From a virus, in IMG/VR virus record IMGVR_UViG_3300045988_073284: 53,362 nt of DNA; one strand, written 5' to 3'. The notes beneath the pieces are model-generated. The model was given only the letters and a program-made list of their open reading frames with translations, was not told where the DNA came from and searched no databases. This document shows positions 8,901 through 53,362 of the stretch, piece after piece (position 1 is the first letter of the stretch; each line of letters opens with the position of its first letter). A program made the translations under genes and the position numbers.

Positions 8901-11900
8901 TGATTTGAAAACATCCCTTAAGGCAAATATGAGCCTGGAGGTGGTTCTGGCTGGAACAAACCAGGTGATCGTAACAAAGATCTCAATGCCATACGTCAAG
9001 GATGGAGAGAAGGGAACACCAGGCGCACCTGGTGAGGATGGAAGAACCAGCTACACCCACTTCAAGTATTCCAACGATGGCGGTTTGTCGTTTACAGGCA
9101 ACAATGGAGAAGAACCAGGATCATACCTGGGGCAGTACACAGACTTCGAGGAAATGGATAGCAGCAATCCTACGAGATACACCTGGGCACTGATCCAGGG
9201 TGAAGCTGGAAACAGCGGTGTTGATGCTGCTGCAAGCTCCTACTTTGAATGTCGGTACGCAAAAAACGGATCTACAGTTGAGCCTCCTACTCTCGATGCT
9301 ACAGCCCTGGAGCCTACAGGATGGAGCCTCCAGATGCCAAGTGTCGGCAAACTGGAATATCTCTGGATGAGTATGGCACAGAAAAGTAAGCTGGTAGAGC
9401 AAACCTATTGCCATATACCTTTCACGGCTAAGGATGGATGCAAGGATATTACTGGTAACTATACCACAGAGTTAGGTTCTGGCGGTTCCATAGTTACAGA
9501 AGGAGATCGCCAATATCTGAGCCTTCCAGATGATTCAGATCTGAGAATTAAGTATGATCTTCCTTTCGGGGAGAATTTCACGCTATTCTTCTGGTTCAAG
9601 ACGGATCAGAAGAAGATCGGATGGGCTATCCAGGATGCTGCCTTCACTCTCAATATGAAGGAAATGGATGTGAAGCCTGGAACATGGATGCACCTGGCAT
9701 TCAGATTCAGTGATCGCACCGTATCATGCTTTTTGAATGGTGTAAGACAGGCAACGGCTTCTCTTAACAAGAAGCTGATCGGTTTCACGGTCTATGATAG
9801 CAATATGTATGCAAGCGCAAACTGCTATGATGAGTTTAGGATGGTCAATGGTGCTCTGGCTGATGTTGATATTGTCAAGGTGTACCAAGATAAGGCAGAT
9901 AAGCTGCTTTCCAACTGGAGTGTGCCTACACGTATTTCACCTTACGATGGCAAGGATGGAGTTTCGGTAATGGCACGTTATTCATCCGATAAGCAGAACT
10001 GGCATACATCATTTCAGACTGGAGATCAATGGATGCAAACATCATCCGATTCTGGCAACACCTGGGGAGAGGCTTGCAAGATCGTGGGCGAAGCTGGTGC
10101 AAACGGAAAGTACACAGATTATTCATTCGCCACTTCCAAGGATCTCACGACTAAGGATGTGTTCACTTCACCAAGGATCTACACAACGTGGTCGGATGCG
10201 CCTGTAGCTACTACCAAAGATTATCCTTATCTCTGGATGAAGGTGGTAGAGGTAGATTCCAACGGAAAGAAATCACAGGCACGTTACACCAGGCTTACAG
10301 GAGATCCTGGCAAGGATGGTGTTGATGGTGTTGATTCCAAGTATATCTATCTGAGGGGTACAGGCATGAACAGGACAGCAGACGGACAGGTTACGATCTA
10401 CAACGGAACAAAGACTGAGACGATCACTTGTGCCACCAGAGGCTTAACCCTGGTAAGGGTGGATCGTTCTTCTCTGGCTGTGCTGGAAACGTACAAATGT
10501 GACACATACAGCAATGTAGATTCCACGCTGACTGCATTCGCCAAAAAGATCAAGGCATATAACTCTGAATGTTTCATTTGCCTGGTAAGCTATGATGCTG
10601 TAGCCTGGAATGATAGCTTGATAGATGCGCTTAAGTATTGTGGAGGAACTGATCTTCACAATAGGGCACAGGGTCGTTATCCATTTGCGTTCCTGGGAAT
10701 ACCAGGCATGGCACAAGGTTACGCTCAGATGATCCAAAGCTCTGATTCTTCCAGTGCTCCTTATGCTGAGATCTCTGCTTATATCGCTAACAGGATGTTC
10801 GCTACTGCCAAAGCTGTAGAAGAAACCTGTAGGCTTGATCTCTCTAACGAGAACGAAACAGTTACTTGCGATTCAAGCGGAAAGGTAATCGGTTCAATCC
10901 AGGGAACCCAGGCTACTCTCTATAAGGGATCCTCTGTAGTATCTGGTATATATTATTCATGTTCAGCAAGCGGATGTAGCTGTAGTTTCAGTACCACTAC
11001 TGGAAAGGCTACTAACATAGATATGAGTAGCAATAAGGCAACACTAACAATCTCATGCACTTATGATGGTGTTACCTATTCGGCTGTATATACGATTTCT
11101 AAGGTATATCCTGGCAAGGATGGATCGGATGCTGTATCAAGATACCTGGAGCTATCATGTAACAGTGTCAAGGTTGATAAGAGTGGAAATGTATCTCCTT
11201 CCAAGATCACTGCAAAACAGATGAAACAGGTTGGTGGTAAGGCTCCAGAAAACACTGCCGACTTGTATCTGGTAGGTCTTGCATCATCCAAGAGCACAGC
11301 GACACAGCTTAAGGCGAAGTCTATCACGATCAACGTATCAAGCTCAGATTCATGGGTGGATTTCACGCTTAAGGATGGATCTGGCAACGTTTATGACACA
11401 GAACGTGTTCCAGTGATCAAGGATGGAAAGGATGGCACAAATGGTACAAACGGTAAGGATGGAACCAACGGAAAGGACGGTGCTCCTGGCACTCCAGGAA
11501 AGGATGGTGCTCCAGGAACACCTGGTAAGGACGGAAGGGATGGAATTGATGGAAAAGATGGTAGAGACGGAACAGATGGCTATAGCCTGGCTCCTATCTA
11601 TCGTGGAGAATATTCAGCATCCAAGACTTACTACGGAACCCAGTACCGTGTTGATATTGTCAAGTACAATGGTATCTATTACGTGGCACGTGTCGATGCA
11701 GGAACCTTCTCTAATGTGGCTCCTACGAACACATCCAAGTGGAACCCTTTCGGTGCTCAGTTTGAGAGCATAGCAACTAACTTGCTTCTGGCTGAGGGTG
11801 CTAATATCGGAGACTGGTTCCTGTCTGGAGGTAAGATCGTTTCTACTCTGAGTACAACATCCAGCGGAAAGATCACTCTTGATGCTAAGGGAGGTTTGAT

Positions 11901-13730: not shown

Positions 13731-15086
13731 ATGGGTTTAATTTTAGGTAGTGGTAGCGGAACAAAACCACAGTTCCCTTATGATATGTGGTATGGTGTTC
13801 AGCACGACAACACAAGCAAGGACTACAAATTAAAGAGAGTGGGCAACCTGGAACTGCATAAAACTTTGCCGCTCCAGAACCGTATGAAGCGTTTCGTGGA
13901 AAATGAGGATGGTACAGTTAAGTACTACCTTCATCCTAACGATTCTCGCTTAACAGAAGGTGGAGCTAAGGCGATCCTGGATGGATCAGATGGTAATGTG
14001 ATGCTGGAGCTTCCAAAGTTCTATTTCCGTCTGGAGATCAATGGTACATCATGGATCTATGCTATCAGTGAGTATCCGCTTCCAGGTTTCACTAAGGTAG
14101 AACGACAAACGATCTCTCCTTGGTTCGCTACTTATGACAATGTGAATAAGAAGCCAGTATCGGCTTCCTTCCTTACATGGGATGGCGATAATGTGAAGCG
14201 AGACGAAAACGGTCTGCCAGTATTTTCAGCTAATGCCGCTAATTGCCGTGGTGGTAGCAATAACGCTTCATGGGATGGAACGTACAGAAGTCTGATCGGT
14301 ATGGGTCGTACCTCAGTAAGCAAGAGCACTGTTCGTGGATGGTGTAACGCTGTTGGTAATGGCATCCATCATGGAGCTGGTAGAGCTTACAACACGATAA
14401 AGTGGTTCCAGCGTATCGAATACGCTTCAATGTACAACCAGGATGCTTACACGGCTCAGCTTACAGATGAGGGCTATCACCAGGGAGGTTTAGGATCTGG
14501 ATGCTCTTGTGATGGTAGTCAGTGGAGCACCCACAACGGATACAATCCTTTCATACCTTGCGGTGTCACCATTCCGCTTGGTAACAACACAGGAAAGGTT
14601 TCCTATACTGTTAAGAACTGGGCTGGTGGTGGCACAGATAAGGTATTCCAGGTAACATCATACCGTGGTTTCGGTGTTCCTTTTGAATATCTCTGGATGC
14701 TGGCAGATGATTTTCTGGTATATTATGGCGAAAGCGAAAGCACGCTGTATGCATGCAAGGATCCTTCTAAGTTCACTTCTCACTCTGATTCTGCCACTAC
14801 GGTTCCAGAAGGATATGAGGCGGCTGTATCACTGCCACGTGATGAAGGTTGGGGACTTGTAGAGGGTATCACCAGTTACGGCTTATCAGCTGTTAGCAAG
14901 GTAGGTGGCTCACCTATTACAGGTAATACTGATTATTTTTGGATGAATGCCACAGTAGGCTGGTGGGGTGCTCTGCTCGGTGCGGGTGCGAATGATGGTG
15001 CGCATGCTGGGTTCGGCTGTCTGTCTGCGGGTCATCGCTCCTCGGCTTCGTATGCGTCTTTTGGGTTCCGCTTGTGCCGAAATTAA
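13731..15086 (+). CDS. DGR target protein 1: receptor-binding-type protein with C-terminal C-type-lectin/FGE-fold variable region
   Basis: 451-aa ORF. The C-terminus ...WWGALLGAGANDGAHAGFGCLSAGHRSSASYASFGFRLCRN is encoded by VR1. VR1 matches the TR downstream except at TR adenines. The stop comes 13 nt after the VR, as in classical Mtd-like targets. Confidence 0.9.
   Translation: MGLILGSGSGTKPQFPYDMWYGVQHDNTSKDYKLKRVGNLELHKTLPLQNRMKRFVENEDGTVKYYLHPNDSRLTEGGAKAILDGSDGNVMLELPKFYFRLEINGTSWIYAISEYPLPGFTKVERQTISPWFATYDNVNKKPVSASFLTWDGDNVKRDENGLPVFSANAANCRGGSNNASWDGTYRSLIGMGRTSVSKSTVRGWCNAVGNGIHHGAGRAYNTIKWFQRIEYASMYNQDAYTAQLTDEGYHQGGLGSGCSCDGSQWSTHNGYNPFIPCGVTIPLGNNTGKVSYTVKNWAGGGTDKVFQVTSYRGFGVPFEYLWMLADDFLVYYGESESTLYACKDPSKFTSHSDSATTVPEGYEAAVSLPRDEGWGLVEGITSYGLSAVSKVGGSPITGNTDYFWMNATVGWWGALLGAGANDGAHAGFGCLSAGHRSSASYASFGFRLCRN
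14964..15073 (+). repeat. DGR variable region VR1
   Basis: Hand alignment to TR 15223..15332 (offset 259). 110 nt with 17 mismatches, every one opposite a TR adenine (for example AAT->GGT, GAT, CAT, TCT, GCT, TAT; TAT->TGT; ATT->TTT). No non-adenine mismatch. Confidence 0.9.
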
Positions 15087-15222
15087 AAAATAAGGTACGG
15101 AAAGTTCGGTGTGCGGTTCGGCACGGCTTCGACCTGGCTGCAAAGTACACTGAACTTTCAAAGCATTTCGGAAAAATCAGAATTGAGAAAATAAAGTAAA
15201 AATATACACGGTGGCGATCTCC

Positions 15223-15332
15223 AGGGGTGCTCTGCTCGGTGCGAATGCGAATAATGGTGCGAATGCTGGGTTCGGCTATCTGAATGCGAATAATCGCTCC
15301 TCGAATTCGAATGCGAATATTGGGTTCCGCTT
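15223..15332 (+). repeat. DGR template repeat (TR)
   Basis: Non-coding copy between the target and the RT. It carries ten AAT triplets plus TAT and ATT exactly where both VRs vary. It is followed by ttttaccg, whereas both VRs have ttgtgcc (an IMH*/IMH-like distinction). Confidence 0.9.
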
Positions 15333-15430
15333 TTACCGTGATTTCTAATTTAATAAAGATATTGTAGGAGTTTCGCCACCCTACCACACAGGATCCACTG
15401 GCACGTCTGGTGGATGGTAAAATAATATAG

Positions 15431-16663
15431 ATGGATAATAAAGCTGTGCAAGTAAGACAATGGGGTAACAAAGCTCAGAACAACGTCCACGGCACTAAGG
15501 ATAATAATAAGGTGATCATCCCTTATGTGTATCAAGATTTCGATGATGTAGGCTATTACATAGGTAATACTGGTAAGCTGCTTATATCTCCTACTGCAAA
15601 GATAAGAAACGTATATCCTCTGATATATTCAACAGAGAATTTGATTTTATCTCAGTACACAGCACAGAAGGGTAAGAAGGATCGCACAGAGATAGATGAG
15701 TTCAATGAGAACATCAATGAAAATCTACAGATTCTGTATGAGATCCTATCTGAAAAGACTTACGTTCCTGGTGAATATAAGGTGAAGGAGATACACGATC
15801 CAAAAGATCGTATCATTATGATAGCACCTTTCTTTCCAGATCGTATCATTCACCACTGCGTGATCAACGTGTTAAGCCCTTTTTGGACGCACATTTTCAT
15901 AGACAACACCTATGCTTGTATCAAAGGTAGAGGCATCCAGAAATGCGCTGATGATGTAGGCAAGGCTCTCATGCTTGATTTCGCTGGTACACAGTTCTGT
16001 CTGAAAACGGACATTACGAAGTACTATGACCACATAGATCATGCTGTATTGAAGGCTATCCTAAGATACACCATAGATGATGAGGATCTCCTGGAGCTGC
16101 TGTTTAAGATAATTGATAGTAACGGTAAGAATGTAGGTTTGCCTATTGGCAATTTCACAAGTCAGTATCTGGCTAACATATACCTGGCATACTTTGATCA
16201 CTGGGTTAAAGAAGAACTTGCCAGGATGGTTAAGCAGAAGTTCGGCTGCAAGATATACTATTTCCGATATATGGATGATATGGTATTCCTGGCAGAAACA
16301 AAAGAAGCACTCCAGTTCGTTCTGGATATGGCTGGTTTGTACCTGGGAGCTGAGCTTCATGTGGAATTTAAGCACACATGGCAGATATTTCCTGTAGATG
16401 ATCGCTCTATCGACTTTGTGGGATTCAAGCAGAACCACTATAATATTCTGCTGAGAAAGACGATCCTTCTTAAGTTCTACAAGAAACTGGAGGAAACTCA
16501 GAAGCACTATCTCATTAAGAATGAAGAGGACATCAAGCACCTATTTCCATCCGAATATGGCTGGATCATTAAGTGCTCGGAACAACACAAGAATTTCATA
16601 TTTAATAAATGTATAAATTATGGAAACATTAAGACTGAAAACAGGGCTGATCTCTGTAGATAA
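15431..16663 (+). CDS. DGR reverse transcriptase
   Basis: 410 aa. It has the RT motif RYMDDMVFLA (YMDD) and the DGR-typical motif LPIGNFTSQYLANIYL ((I/L)GxxxSQ). It lies 98 nt downstream of the TR. Confidence 0.92.
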   Translation: MDNKAVQVRQWGNKAQNNVHGTKDNNKVIIPYVYQDFDDVGYYIGNTGKLLISPTAKIRNVYPLIYSTENLILSQYTAQKGKKDRTEIDEFNENINENLQILYEILSEKTYVPGEYKVKEIHDPKDRIIMIAPFFPDRIIHHCVINVLSPFWTHIFIDNTYACIKGRGIQKCADDVGKALMLDFAGTQFCLKTDITKYYDHIDHAVLKAILRYTIDDEDLLELLFKIIDSNGKNVGLPIGNFTSQYLANIYLAYFDHWVKEELARMVKQKFGCKIYYFRYMDDMVFLAETKEALQFVLDMAGLYLGAELHVEFKHTWQIFPVDDRSIDFVGFKQNHYNILLRKTILLKFYKKLEETQKHYLIKNEEDIKHLFPSEYGWIIKCSEQHKNFIFNKCINYGNIKTENRADLCR

Positions 16664-17063
16664 GCCACAGGTGATTGATGATCTGAGAAATGGTCAGAGT
16701 ACGTTCAACTACAACCACAACATCAAGGAGATTGAGGTGGAACAGAACGCTGGTAACACAGAGGCTGGCGAAGGTGAAGGCTCAGAGCCTAAGAAGGTAA
16801 AGAGCTGGCAGTATGACAGCTTGCGTGTTGAGTATCCTCGCACAGGTAACAACATCCTCGAAACGCTTCTCACTGAGAAGTACCCACAGGATCAGCAGCA
16901 GAAGCTGGTGAATGACTACCAGGCTGCACAGCTTGGTATCCTGGAGGATGAGGAAGCCGATAATGCTGTTGCATCCTACAAGGCATTCTTGCAAGATCGC
17001 AAGGCTATCAAGGCGATGGTTAAGGCTGATTGTGTAACTTATAACATTCCAGACAGCATCTAA
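16620..17063 (+). CDS. Hypothetical acidic protein overlapping the RT 3' end
   Basis: 147-aa ORF overlapping the RT by 44 nt. It has a Glu/Gly-rich segment EVEQNAGNTEAGEGEGSEP. No motif recognised. Confidence 0.5.
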   Translation: METLRLKTGLISVDKPQVIDDLRNGQSTFNYNHNIKEIEVEQNAGNTEAGEGEGSEPKKVKSWQYDSLRVEYPRTGNNILETLLTEKYPQDQQQKLVNDYQAAQLGILEDEEADNAVASYKAFLQDRKAIKAMVKADCVTYNIPDSI

Positions 17064-19359: not shown

Positions 19360-19493
19360 TGAAGGAAATGATGTAACTCTCTGATATTCATATATCAAGA
19401 TAGATCTTTCCTAAAGATAGGATCTCTGTTTCTCCCTTTGGGATATAACGGATTCAATCTGGAAATATTGCCAGGGCGATCATAAATTTATAA

Positions 19494-19565
19494 GTCTCTA
19501 TAGTTCAACGGATAGAACAGCGGTTTCCTAAACCGTAGATCTGGGTTCGATTCCCAGTAGGGATA
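19494..19565 (+). tRNA. tRNA-Arg (anticodon CCT)
   Basis: Hand-folded cloverleaf. Acceptor stem gtctcta/tagggat (two G-U pairs). D stem gttc/gaac with a GG in the loop. Anticodon stem gcggt/accgt and loop ttCCTaa (U33, A37). 4-nt variable loop. T stem ctggg/cccag with loop ttcgatt. Discriminator A; no encoded CCA. Confidence 0.85.
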
Positions 19566-19632
19566 CTTAAATCATCATAAATGATTCAGTGTTTTGCTGC
19601 ACTTTCAGCAAAAAATGATTATTTTTGCGGTG

Positions 19633-19659
19633 CGAAGTTCTACAAATATTCCACAAAAG
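19633..19659 (+). repeat. Direct repeat B (cgaagttctacaaatattccacaaaag), right of the tRNA and just upstream of the int start
   Basis: See 19332..19359. The two copies are 301 bp apart and bracket the tRNA. Confidence 0.6.
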
Positions 19660-19667
19660 CAAAAATA

Positions 19668-20948
19668 ATGGTTACATTCAAAGCAGAAGTGTACGCTCAC
19701 CAACGCAAGAAGGATGGAACGTACAACATTAAAATCAGAGTAACGCATCACCAGAAGAAGCGTTATCTTTCCACATCCTGGTTCGTGACGAAGGAGGATC
19801 TTACCAGATCCATGAAGATAAAGAACCAGAAATACATAGATCTTACCAGCGATCTCATTAAGGTGTATCGCTCCAGGTGCGAGGTTCCAAGTGAGAGGCT
19901 TGATGAAATGGATATAGACCAGGTAGTGGATCTTATCCAGAGTAAAAGACAGGAAGCCTGGGATCTGGATATTATCCAGTTTGCCGATCAGTTTATCAAG
20001 GAGCTTAGAAATACTGGGCATGAAGGCAATGCCAGAAGTTACGAGATAGCTCTCGCATCTTTGAAGAATTTCCTGGATCGTGATTCTCTATCGGTTAAGG
20101 AGATCACTGTGGGGTTCCTCAGAGACTGGATAGCCTGGATCAAGAAAGGCAAGAATATCACTACAGGTTTCGCTCCACATAACTATGTATCAAGACTGAG
20201 AGCCATCTTCAACCAGGCAAAGAAGATCTACAACGATGAAGATGCTGGCATCATCCGCATCCCTAACAGCCCTTTCCAGCACATAGACTTTCCCAAACAG
20301 CCAGTTCCAGAGAAAAGAGCAATCACGCTGGAACAACTGCAGAAGATCGCTTCTCTCCAGGATCGGAGCCAGTACCAGGTAGGAACCAACAGGTTTAATT
20401 TCTCCAGAGATCTCTTTCTTCTCTCCTTCTCTCTGATCGGTATGAATGCCGCTGATCTGTATGAGGTGGAAGCTGGAAGCCTGGTCGATGGAAGGATCAC
20501 ATACAACAGACGCAAGACCAGGAACAGAAGGGCAGATCAAGCTGAGATCTCAGTGAAGGTAGAACCAGAGGCTGCTGAGCTGATCCAGAGATACAGAGAT
20601 CCGTCTGGTGTGAAGCTATTCGATTTCTATCATAGATATGGAACCGTGGGATCATTCGAGGCGAACCTTAACAAGGGCTTGAAGAAGGTCGGAACTGCAA
20701 TAGGTGTTGAAGGGCTGGAGTTCTATGCTGCCAGGCATACCTGGGCAACGCTGGCAGTGAACCAGGCTGGAGTTGATAAGTACACGGTTCACCAGGCTCT
20801 TAACCATGTGGATGATTCTATGCGTAACACGGATATGTACATCAAGAAGTCCTATGATTGCAACGATCTCGCTAACAGAAAGGTTCTGGATCTGTCTGGT
20901 ATCGGTGTTTTGCTTAAGCAAAAGCCAGATATAGCTGGTAAACAATAA
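19668..20948 (+). CDS. int: Tyrosine recombinase / integrase
   Basis: Track ORF 19581..20948; the likely start is ATG 19668 (MVTFKAEVYAHQRKKDGTYNIKIRVTHH..., the arm-binding N-terminus typical of Bacteroidales integrases). Catalytic-region motifs are AARHTWATLA (HxxR) and ALNHVDDSMRNTDMYIKK (terminal Tyr). Confidence 0.9.
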   Translation: MVTFKAEVYAHQRKKDGTYNIKIRVTHHQKKRYLSTSWFVTKEDLTRSMKIKNQKYIDLTSDLIKVYRSRCEVPSERLDEMDIDQVVDLIQSKRQEAWDLDIIQFADQFIKELRNTGHEGNARSYEIALASLKNFLDRDSLSVKEITVGFLRDWIAWIKKGKNITTGFAPHNYVSRLRAIFNQAKKIYNDEDAGIIRIPNSPFQHIDFPKQPVPEKRAITLEQLQKIASLQDRSQYQVGTNRFNFSRDLFLLSFSLIGMNAADLYEVEAGSLVDGRITYNRRKTRNRRADQAEISVKVEPEAAELIQRYRDPSGVKLFDFYHRYGTVGSFEANLNKGLKKVGTAIGVEGLEFYAARHTWATLAVNQAGVDKYTVHQALNHVDDSMRNTDMYIKKSYDCNDLANRKVLDLSGIGVLLKQKPDIAGKQ

Positions 20949-21170
20949 GTTACAAGCCTTATTTTGCTTAAGCAAAAATATACCAGAGAATTTTGCTTAA
21001 GCAAATAGATTTTTCACGATTTATTTTGCTTAAGCAAAAGTTATAATCTACTGAAATACAAGTATTTGCAAGGCTCGCATAAATATGTATTATCTTTTTA
21101 TTTTGCTTAAGCAAAAAACATAAAACGTTTATTACCAGATAATTACAGAGCCTATTTTGCTTAAGCAAAA
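20908..21170. repeat. Array of six copies of the 16-bp perfect palindrome TTTTGCTTAAGCAAAA
   Basis: Copies read at 20908, 20962, 20991 (imperfect, ...gcaaat), 21024, 21101 and 21155. The first lies inside the last codons of int. Spacing is irregular (54, 29, 33, 77 and 54 bp). An AT-rich tata-type tract follows at 21171..21235. Confidence 0.9.
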
Positions 21171-28073: not shown

Positions 28074-28218
28074 CCACATGGTAACTGAGCTACAGAGGCT
28101 GGTTCCACTGATTATTGATAACGTTTCAGATACAAAGAATACCAGAGTACTGAATGCTATCAGAATAACGAAGAAGATTATTAAAAAGTTAGATAATTTA
28201 AAAGATATTGAAAAATGA
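28057..28218 (+). CDS. Small hypothetical protein (53 aa)
   Basis: Internal ATG of track ORF 27919..28218 (MKKIPNHMVTELQRLVPLIIDN...). Its stop overlaps the next start (ATGA). Confidence 0.35.
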   Translation: MKKIPNHMVTELQRLVPLIIDNVSDTKNTRVLNAIRITKKIIKKLDNLKDIEK

Positions 28219-28835
28219 AGGTAATAGAAGTAACAGAGAAAGAAGTAAAGGCTGCATTTGATGCGGCAAAGAGTGATGAGGTGAAGAATGTGCTGGCAGC
28301 ACTCTTTTGCAAGCCAGAGGATCGTGTTAAGCCATCCCTGGATGATTACAAGAGTATCAAGACATACGAAGATGCTTGTGAGGCACTTGGTGAAGAACCT
28401 GTAGAGGGATCTCTCGGAGATCATGTAGATAAGCATATTATCGCCTTAATTAAGCTGGAGACTATAAGCCGTGCTCTCTGGGGAAAGGACTGGCAACCTA
28501 AGCCAGATCCAGATGGTAGCAAGTATTTCTATTATCCTTGGTTCGCTCTCTACACTCAGTCTGAAATGGATTCTATGAGTGAGGAAGATAGGGGTGCTAT
28601 GCTCGGTGCGAGTGCGAATTCTGGTGCGAATGCTGGGTTCGGCTGTCTGATTGCGAATATTCGCTCCTCGGCTTTGTCTGCGGATTTTGGGTTCCGCTTG
28701 TGCCAGGAAACAGAGAAAAAGGCTAAGTATTTCGGTGTTCAGTTCAAGGAAATCTGGGCTGATTATCTGGCATTCCAGTTCAAGGAAATCTGGGCTGATT
28801 ATCTGGCATTCAATTTCACTGTAGAGAATAAATAA
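28215..28835 (+). CDS. DGR target protein 2: small (206 aa) C-type-lectin-fold variable protein in the early operon
   Basis: The segment ...YYPWFALY...RGAMLGASANSGANAGFGCLIANIRSSALSADFGFRLCQ... is encoded by VR2, which matches the TR at 15223..15332. Unlike target 1, 45 further codons follow the VR, including a tandem duplication. No signal peptide is evident. Confidence 0.85.
   Translation: MKVIEVTEKEVKAAFDAAKSDEVKNVLAALFCKPEDRVKPSLDDYKSIKTYEDACEALGEEPVEGSLGDHVDKHIIALIKLETISRALWGKDWQPKPDPDGSKYFYYPWFALYTQSEMDSMSEEDRGAMLGASANSGANAGFGCLIANIRSSALSADFGFRLCQETEKKAKYFGVQFKEIWADYLAFQFKEIWADYLAFNFTVENK
28590..28699 (+). repeat. DGR variable region VR2 (remote; 13,367 nt from the TR)
   Basis: Hand alignment to the TR gives 12 mismatches at TR adenines plus 2 at non-adenines (TR C15232 -> A28599; TR C15308 -> T28675). 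VR2 has the same 3' flank as VR1 (gggttccgcttgtgcc). Confidence 0.85.
28740..28811 (+). repeat. Perfect 2 x 36-bp tandem duplication (cagttcaaggaaatctgggctgattatctggcattc)
   Basis: 28740..28775 is identical to 28776..28811. It is in frame and encodes QFKEIWADYLAF twice, 41 nt after the end of VR2. Confidence 0.97.
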
Positions 28836-52901: not shown

Positions 52902-53362
52902 ATGGATAATATTAACGGTGGTTTAGCGTTTGCGGCAACGCTTGATATAAAGGACTTCAATGTGTCGGCTGACGCAATGAATGCAAGGGTTAAGCAGCTC
53001 TCTGATACTACAGCGGCTAAGGCGGCTGAAATGGATCAGTCACTCTTAACCTTTGCTAAGAATGGTGCTGCCTATATTACTTCTTACCTGGTAGGTCAAG
53101 GCATGACGAACTTGCTTACGTCTATCGTACAGGTAAGAGGTCAGTTCCAACAGCTGGAAATCGCTTTTGAAACTATGCTGGGTTCCAAGAGCAAGGCACA
53201 TGAACTGATGCAACAGATGGAGGAAACAGCCGCTAAGACACCGTTTGATCTGGATGGTGTTGCTAACGGTGCTAAACAGCTCCTGGCATACGGTGAGAGT
53301 GCTGATAAGGTAAATGATACCCTGGTGAGACTGGGTAACATAGCCTCTGGTTTGTCTTTGCC
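52902..53362 (+). CDS. Tape measure protein, N-terminal part (runs off the window end; continues at nt 142 via the circular junction)
   Basis: ATG 52902: MDNINGGLAFAATLDIKDFNVSADAMNARVKQLSDTTAAKAAEMDQSLLTFAKNGAAYITSYLVGQGMTNLLTSIVQVRGQFQQLEIAFETMLGSKSKAHELMQQMEETAAKTPFDLDGVANGAKQLLAYG... There is no stop before the window end. It is absent from the ORF track only because it is unterminated. Confidence 0.85.
   Translation, partial: MDNINGGLAFAATLDIKDFNVSADAMNARVKQLSDTTAAKAAEMDQSLLTFAKNGAAYITSYLVGQGMTNLLTSIVQVRGQFQQLEIAFETMLGSKSKAHELMQQMEETAAKTPFDLDGVANGAKQLLAYGESADKVNDTLVRLGNIASGLSL
53222..53362. repeat. Terminal overlap, copy 2 (identical to 1..141)
   Basis: See the first feature. Confidence 0.97.

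Follow-up and report, generated by a model that had tools for sequence, protein, structure and literature searches.

Does a reverse transcriptase (RT) gene that lies beside phage tail genes and is preceded by a pair of repeats form a working diversity-generating retroelement (DGR), and which genes would such an element diversify? The locus in question occupies positions 13731 to 16663 of IMG/VR virus record IMGVR_UViG_3300045988_073284, a DNA of 53,362 nt that was analysed at its full length and is called the window below. All coordinates are those of the window, and the features of the cassette and of the second target are all on the plus strand. A preliminary description, made from the sequence alone, had proposed a complete and currently active DGR acting on one target gene next to tail fibre genes. 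The results presented here point to an accessory-free DGR of a temperate Segatella phage that diversifies two genes, and we give this reading a probability of roughly 0.93.

One template repeat and two variable repeats

The template repeat (TR, 15223–15332) and the first variable repeat (VR1, 14964–15073) were aligned without gaps over 110 nt at an offset of 259 nt. They differed at 17 positions, and the TR base was A at every one of them. TR contains 23 A residues in its 110 nt, and the chance of all mismatches falling on A is 2.6e-15 (17/17). The mismatch 14964/15223 coincides with the repeat boundary; when it was set aside, 16 clearly internal mismatches remained, with a corresponding chance of 1.3e-14 (16/16). 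Target gene 1 (13731–15086) encodes a 451-aa tail protein, the last 40 residues of which are specified by VR1. In the frame of this open reading frame (ORF), 14964 is the first base of a codon, and TR holds ten AAT codons together with TAT and ATT; the 12 diversified codons of VR1 correspond to residues 419, 421, 422, 425, 430, 432, 434, 435, 439, 441, 443, and 444. The gapless alignment, the confinement of the differences to TR adenines, the count of AAT codons, and the order of target gene with VR1, TR, and RT gene had all been given correctly in the preliminary description.

The homology between VR1 and TR extends further, to 15079 and 15338, respectively. At the 3′ end of the repeat, VR1 and VR2 (see below) both have GCTTGTGCC, whereas TR has GCTTTTACC; GTGCC in the VRs against TTACC in TR is a two-base difference resembling that between the initiation of mutagenic homing (IMH) sequence and its counterpart in TR (IMH*). 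The IMH-like end of VR1 (GGGTTCCGCTTGTGCCG, 15063–15079) is common to VR2, and the IMH*-like end occupies 15322–15338 of the non-coding TR (15223–15338 in its extended form). This difference was kept in every VR of related phages and across the family. By analogy with the Bordetella IMH (PMC3240598), the 3′ ends of the VRs would serve the same function.

A repeat search of the whole window and an adenine-tolerant scan of both strands revealed exactly one more copy, VR2 (28590–28705), which is located 13,367 nt downstream of TR. VR2 is in frame within target gene 2 (28215–28835; 206 aa) and includes the same 12 codons. It differs from TR at 14 positions, 12 of them at A and two at non-A (28599 and 28675). 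In the target 2 protein the VR2 segment lies within the chain, ahead of a conserved helical tail. Profile-profile comparison indicated that targets 1 and 2 have only the 37-aa VR segment in common.

Activity was examined using cross-sample assemblies of related phages from other gut samples, not reads. These comprised an IMG/VR contig (L002/L083) 98% identical to the window over 8 kb, another (L082) 95% identical, and further loci retrieved from viral, metagenome, and genome collections with a pattern that had a fixed 39-nt core and N at the TR-A sites. The retrieved loci were all 95–98% identical to the window. TR was identical in every recovered relative except for a G>A change at 15313 in two genomes, whereas the 7 VR1 and 13 VR2 sequences found in near-identical phages were all distinct. 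When these 20 VRs were compared with TR, 264 of the 440 A-site cells (60%) differed, against 9 of the 1740 non-A cells (0.5%); outside the core fixed by the pattern, the corresponding values were 185/300 and 9/1100.

Four of the nine non-A differences were accounted for by the TR variant G15313A. This variant was present in VR1 of L083 and in both VR1 (L097) and VR2 (L095) of one contig, and the TRs of both genomes carry A. It was also present in VR2 of L089, the TR of which was not recovered. None of the genomes with G at 15313 of TR had A there in a VR. The distribution of this variant is direct comparative evidence for a flow of information from TR to both VRs and for its having taken place since these genomes separated.

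The same pattern was observed in the proteins. Target 2, compared between the window protein and 120 cluster representatives, was essentially invariant except at the 12 TR-A codons. Entropy at the ten AAT codons was 2.9–3.5 bits, with 12–15 residues at each, and the TAT and ATT codons varied as well. For target 1, a single 90% cluster holds 2634 sequences. The window protein and 13 members of this cluster were compared at full length; no two of these 14 sequences were alike, and the differences were at the same 12 positions. Position 442 of target 1 was A or T, exactly matching the prediction from the TR variant. Genomes only 2–5% apart bear completely different VRs, and the turnover of VRs is therefore fast relative to point mutation. 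Both targets are thus diversified in this lineage. The preliminary description had named a VR1 that is monomorphic in deep, multi-sample reads as evidence against activity; the assemblies contained hypervariable VRs and a fixed TR.

Some differences of another kind were noted in the same material. Between the 98%-identical genomes, one cluster of differences lies in the middle of target 1 (14500–14599; residues 257, 258, 262, 263, 266, and 271), and a second cluster outside the VRs lies at 11500–11600, in the collagen-like Gly-X-Y repeats of a 2237-aa fibre protein; neither is adenine-directed. In addition, within the last ~250 nt of one contig (L088, OQVQ01001519.1), at the contig end, an unmutated TR-like sequence is joined at its position 84 to the stretch that directly precedes VR1, in reverse-complement orientation. 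Most likely the repeats gave rise to a chimera during assembly, and a real rearrangement is the less likely explanation.

The reverse transcriptase and the RNA around the template repeat

The RT gene (15431–16663) encodes a protein of 410 aa that matched Pfam RVT_1 and PHROG 1423 and contains the motifs IGNFTSQ (16145–16165) and YMDD (16268–16279). In a search against all solved structures, the best match was the Bordetella phage RT (bRT; 8ub7) with an E value of 2.4e-28 and 102 bits over residues 58–360, whereas the next RT classes (retron-type and group II) reached 47 bits or less. The SQ motif aligned with IGSLTSQ of bRT. Matches to NCBIfam models (group II, Drt2, retron, and Drt3) were all far under the cut-offs. 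These results support the grouping of the window RT with DGR RTs, the class to which its motifs had led the preliminary description to assign it. The RT protein of the relative L002 was 100% identical to that of the window.

RT relatives in IMG/VR numbered 453. An adenine-tolerant scan of 80 fetched RT loci identified, in about 65 of them, a TR just in front of the RT gene and, 195–232 nt upstream of this TR, a VR; the mismatches in these loci were nearly all at TR adenines.

RNA structure was predicted from an alignment of 21 members of the family, no two of them identical, over the stretch that begins 40 nt before TR and ends at the RT start. RNAalifold predicted a long-range helix, P1, and a downstream hairpin, P3. 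P1 is a helix of 12–13 bp that joins the ~13 nt directly 5′ of TR (15210–15222, abutting the TR 5′ end) to a stretch ~30 nt 3′ of TR (15367–15381). P3 pairs 15393–15401 with 15407–15415 and is enclosed by a short helix, P2 (UACC/GGUA; 15382–15385 with 15416–15419), which was added to the structure before pairs were counted. An A-rich run (15420–15426) follows directly before the RT start codon. In P1, P2, and P3 together, 95.2% of the cells were paired, compared with 24–62% in controls in which the partners had been slid by 1–3 columns, and none of 500 shuffles matched the observed values. Compensatory changes were found in 15 pairs (10 of 12 in P1, 4 of 9 in P3, and one, U-A to C-G, in P2). 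In a sub-clade that has no P3, P2 is closed by a tetraloop. No Rfam family matched the TR region.

In the Bordetella DGR RNA, the element termed cPRT Stop consists of an 11–13-bp upstream/spacer duplex, a short stem-loop, and adenosines engaged in A-minor contacts; it terminates cDNA (complementary DNA) synthesis and is also required for it (10.1101/2023.10.23.563531). The survey in that study covered Avd-containing DGRs only. P1, P2/P3, and the A-run match the layout of cPRT Stop, and by analogy they may have the same stop function. The VR–TR homology begins 1–2 nt past the P1 5′ strand, which fits the expectation for a cDNA whose end is determined by P1. A linker of ~28 nt (15339–15366) separates the TR end from the P1 3′ strand; it is AU-rich and was unstructured in the fold, and, being so short and AU-rich, it leaves no room for an Avd-binding stem-loop. 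An Avd-binding stem-loop 3′ of TR was thus not found, and for a template:primer duplex no primer strand could be identified convincingly.

The following mechanism is proposed by homology with the Bordetella system, from which the RNA intermediate, the priming, the termination at P1, and the mode of homing are all taken. TR would be carried on a non-coding RNA spanning at least 15210–15426, in which P1 closes TR into a loop and the P2/P3 stem-loop and the A-run come directly after it. RT would copy TR into cDNA and would have to begin 3′ of the adenine at 15319, beyond which no mutagenised adenine lies, and probably 5′ of 15333, where IMH* first differs. It would put random bases opposite the template adenines and stop at P1. 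The cDNA would then replace the homologous stretch in VR1 and in VR2, the direction being set by the IMH-like end, which is present in the VRs only. In each target, 12 codons (ten AAT, one TAT, and one ATT) would thus be randomised. The ceiling of diversity per target is 4^22 variants at the DNA level and ~9e12 at the protein level, with no stop codons.

Two sequences were considered as sources of a primer strand. An (A/C)UGU(U/A) motif just 5′ of the P1 3′ strand (15358–15366) is conserved in the family and in crAss-like DGRs, and its position corresponds to that of the Bordetella primer strand. In this family, GGUAAAA (15416–15422) is also complementary to the TR end UUUUACC (15330–15336). 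Neither sequence yielded a priming model that fits both the extent of mutagenesis, which goes as far as 15319, and the sequences of the crAss-like DGRs.

Known systems, targets, and alternative explanations

No near-identical record was obtained by megablast of deposited phage genomes. The closest isolate was Bacteroides phage Versailles (ON453897.1), an induced prophage of B. caecimuris I48 (PMC10197239). The two phages are syntenic (58 kb in Versailles), and both have a tRNA-Arg and an integrase, the same cassette of target 1, TR, and RT, and a second target flanked by NinB and the replisome organiser. The identities between their products are 68.6% for RT, 59.8% for target 1, and 63% for target 2. 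Both VRs are present in Versailles; A is the TR base at 12 of the 13 mismatches in one and at all 14 in the other. Versailles differs from the window phage in its host genus and by a protein divergence of ~30–40%. In its record, only 'reverse transcriptase' and 'tail protein' are annotated and TR and VR are not, and the paper that names the phage makes no mention of a DGR (PMC10197239).

The prototype DGR, that of BPP-1 (mtd-avd-TR-brt), has a target with a C-terminal VR followed by TR and RT, as in the window. It also resembles the window element in adenine-specific TR-to-VR mutagenesis with AAT-type codons, in a homologous RT, in a GC-rich VR end distinct from the TR end (IMH against IMH*), and in a ~13-bp duplex that brackets TR and is followed by a stem-loop and adenosines. 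On the other hand, no Avd gene was detected in the window, the ~28-nt linker is too short to accommodate the Avd-binding stem-loop, the RT has an extra ~55 aa at its N terminus and ~50 aa at its C terminus relative to bRT, two targets are present, no clear cruciform follows the VR, and the target fold is not recognisably Mtd-like. The crAss-like DGRs (e.g. that of Buchavirus copri cr52_1) have the order target, TR, RT and no avd; they are 38–44% (RT) and ~30% (target) identical to the window proteins. In three of them a duplex, a short stem-loop, and an A-run were recognised by eye 3′ of TR, in the same succession as in the window, and in cr52_1 and cr50_1 the stem-loop is UUACC-UCUA-GGUAA. 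These phages differ in being lytic-type podoviruses of ~100 kb, and in the window clade P3 is inserted in the stem-loop. Only one VR was found in the ~6-kb stretches of crAss-like genomes examined; distal VRs were not searched for.

In gut Bacteroidota prophages, a single TR serves an RT-adjacent tail target and a distal VR near DNA-modification or counter-defence genes (PMC12629997). This design of one TR with a tail target and a distal target, also present in LoVEphage-type phages, is that of the window. LoVEphage-type phages of Bacteroides and Phocaeicola carry a target 2 homologue, 37–38% identical, among DNA-metabolism genes. In five such genomes, the target 2 differences concentrate in nt 412–487, the VR-equivalent stretch. 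These phages belong to another phage family (71 kb against 53 kb) and have other hosts, and the distal target protein was not characterised in PMC12629997. Thus, two targets, a distal VR, the lack of Avd, and a TR-bracketing duplex each have a precedent, and the element itself is ordinary. Since DGRs are common in gut Bacteroidota phages (43% of inducible Bacteroidota prophage species carry one; PMC12629997), this element alone adds little. Its family, which is large, cultivable, and represented by the isolate Versailles from a defined mouse consortium, apparently has no Avd yet has a strongly covarying cPRT-Stop-like RNA, and could serve as a model for Avd-independent reverse transcription.

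Target 1 belongs to PHROG 5302 'tail protein' (E 8e-100) and had no Pfam or NCBIfam match; variation of VR1 most likely retunes receptor binding by this protein. Target 2 belongs to PHROG 11581, a family annotated as being of unknown function that comprises 3323 clusters at 90% identity and 629 representatives at 50%. Its gene is located between NinB/Orf and the replisome organiser, in a block that also holds SbcC-like, RecT-like, metallo-hydrolase, and DnaC-like genes. Its function was also sought in domains fused to longer homologues, where only sub-threshold noise was obtained. The N-terminal part of one 244-aa homologue (P0385) matched the Pfam Tad2-like (Thoeris anti-defence 2) model at 19.9 bits, where 25 is the cut-off. 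This match did not recur in other extended homologues and is probably noise.

Two readings of target 2 were weighed. It may be part of the virion, as another receptor-binding protein or a decoration protein, with a gene that lies outside the structural module. Structural proteins indeed make up most of the known phage DGR targets (10.1101/2020.04.01.020958), phage DGRs with two adhesin-like targets are known (PMC8143477, PMC10743442), and the Versailles homologue is annotated 'tail protein'. However, the shared 37-aa VR segment can by itself explain that annotation. The neighbouring genes are those of recombination, replication, and DNA modification in three groups (the window phage, Versailles, and LoVEphage-type phages), and the product is a small acidic protein that resembles no structural protein and in which no signal peptide was recognised by eye. 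We regard a virion role as possible, at somewhat less than even odds. According to the more specific proposal that we put forward tentatively, and which in its full form is rather unlikely to hold in every part, target 2 would be a non-virion protein co-expressed with recombination and replication functions. Its 12-residue surface would track a variable host factor inside the cell, for instance a defence system, on a scaffold that is not recognisably of the C-type-lectin type, and it would be diversified by an Avd-independent enzyme that has kept only the cPRT-Stop part of the RNA. If target 2 does act inside the cell, a phage DGR would be serving an intracellular arms race. The target 2 family consists of small proteins with very-large-scale diversification that are always found among DNA-metabolism genes, and the published counter-defence idea for distal VRs can be tested on it.

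Several observations weigh against the reading of the locus as an accessory-free DGR diversifying both genes. No Avd was found: 14 small ORFs had no Avd-type Pfam or NCBIfam match, although, because Avd families are poorly conserved, its absence is not proven by this result. The gap between the target 1 stop and TR is 136 nt only. Avd is essential in the sole DGR studied biochemically, and the mechanism may differ here. Accessory-free cassettes ('Architecture A') make up 29% of catalogued DGRs (PMC5758913). The preliminary description of the element as complete is upheld in the sense of a minimal accessory-free design but not with respect to Avd. The C-type-lectin fold that is typical of DGR targets, and that had been attributed to target 1, was likewise not detected. 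Pfam gave no match for the single proteins or for any of 56 target-1 and 61 target-2 relatives, profile searches against PDB sequences gave none for the targets, and Foldseek searches of both AlphaFold2 models against the PDB gave none at E below 0.3. The mean confidence of the models (predicted local distance difference test) was 80 for target 1 and 79.5 for target 2, with values below 50 in the VR stretches of both. The sole lectin-like lead was the annotation of the crAss-like cr52_1 homologue as 'similar to sulfatase, major tropism determinant'.

The Bordetella DGR requires a hairpin or cruciform just downstream of VR (PMC3240598), and no convincing structure of this kind was found 3′ of either VR by DNA folding or family covariation. 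The stems after the VRs were weak (GTGCC/GGTAC after VR1), with DNA-fold z-scores of −1.2 and +0.2, and the family showed no covariation for a conserved structure downstream of VR1. An imperfect inverted repeat between target 1 and TR (15100–15159; arms 15100–15112 and 15147–15159) forms a 13-bp stem in the DNA fold with a z-score of only −1.2. Family members have hairpins of other sequences at the same place, without covariation support, and the repeat could be a terminator or a cruciform. The priming site was not located. Furthermore, the two non-A changes in VR2 (28599 C>A and 28675 C>T) are private to this genome (found in 0 of 12 other VR2s). Just 3′ of VR2, in the region encoding the target 2 tail, is a 36-nt tandem duplication of 2.2 copies (28740–28818) that adds 12 residues (FKEIWADYLAFQ) and is present in none of the relatives seen; the target 2 proteins of the relatives are 192–194 aa, and their alignments break at 28776–28782. 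Taken together, these private changes may be a sign that VR2 is no longer a homing target in this genome. Finally, ongoing activity is inferred for the lineage from cross-sample comparison. The claim of current activity made in the preliminary description accordingly holds for the lineage, in which VR variation is limited to adenines and TR is fixed, and for this genome itself the evidence reaches the lineage level only.

An alternative is that the element is a relic here: the lineage would have diversified its VRs formerly, but in this genome diversification, or at least homing into VR2, would have ceased. The private substitutions and duplication agree with such a history. However, the RT ORF is intact and its product identical to that of a relative, TR is the same as in the relatives, both VRs retain an intact IMH-like end, every mismatch of VR1 lies at an adenine, and the completely different VRs of closely related genomes indicate fast turnover. 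We therefore consider a relic improbable. It could also be supposed that the repeats are ordinary dispersed repeats kept alike by recombination or gene conversion, and that the RT is an unrelated retron, group II intron, or defence enzyme. Gene conversion is able to homogenise repeats, and NCBIfam models of group II, Drt2, and retron enzymes did match the RT below threshold. Those matches were far under the cut-offs, however, Rfam detected no intron RNA or retron non-coding RNA, and the RT carries the DGR-type SQ motif and scored 102 bits to bRT against 47 or less for the other classes. Above all, the mismatches are limited to the adenines of one copy (P about 3e-15), and it is the adenine-bearing copy that is invariant while the others are hypervariable. 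This adenine-specific, one-directional pattern effectively refutes the dispersed-repeat explanation, which we regard as scarcely credible.

Candidates for an Avd function elsewhere in the genome were also examined. Ten basic or small ORFs had no Pfam or NCBIfam match. ORF 16620–17063, which encodes an acidic protein of 147 aa and overlaps the RT end, was rejected as an Avd substitute because its homologue follows a target homologue without an intervening RT in Porphyromonas phage phage005; its linkage to RT within the family is plain synteny. In phage005 (PP754928.1, 45202–46986), the target 1 homologue is 49% identical over residues 1–401 and is without the VR end. The homologue of ORF 16620–17063 comes after 166 nt, with neither TR nor RT in between, and phage005 was not among the RT matches. 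This arrangement looks like an 'empty site' state, as though the gain or loss of the VR end, TR, and RT had taken place in a single block.

Genome setting and host

The window has a perfect terminal direct repeat of 141 nt (1–141 and 53222–53362) and is therefore a circularly assembled, complete genome of ~53.2 kb. Genes for a tape-measure protein, a tail protein, and the 2237-aa fibre-like protein with collagen-like repeats lie upstream of target 1, in agreement with the placement of the element next to tail fibre genes in the preliminary description and with the PHROG 5302 assignment of the target. Downstream of RT are a holin gene, a lysis region, tRNA-Arg(CCT) (19494–19566), and an integrase gene (19581–20948). 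Similarity to the window ends at 19407–19415 in several larger contigs, among them a Segatella hominis BCRC 81118 scaffold of 90.6 kb. This stop beside the tRNA and integrase genes suggests an integrated prophage, and the phage, as a temperate one, probably has its attachment site at 19407–19415. The host, assigned from that scaffold, is Segatella (Prevotella), and the phage is a temperate, siphovirus-like phage of the gut.

At 20908–21170, six copies of the 16-bp perfect palindrome TTTTGCTTAAGCAAAA were found, one of them with a single mismatch, where none is expected by chance. The copies sit between the integrase gene and divergent regulatory genes, and the array is probably the operator of the lysis-lysogeny switch.

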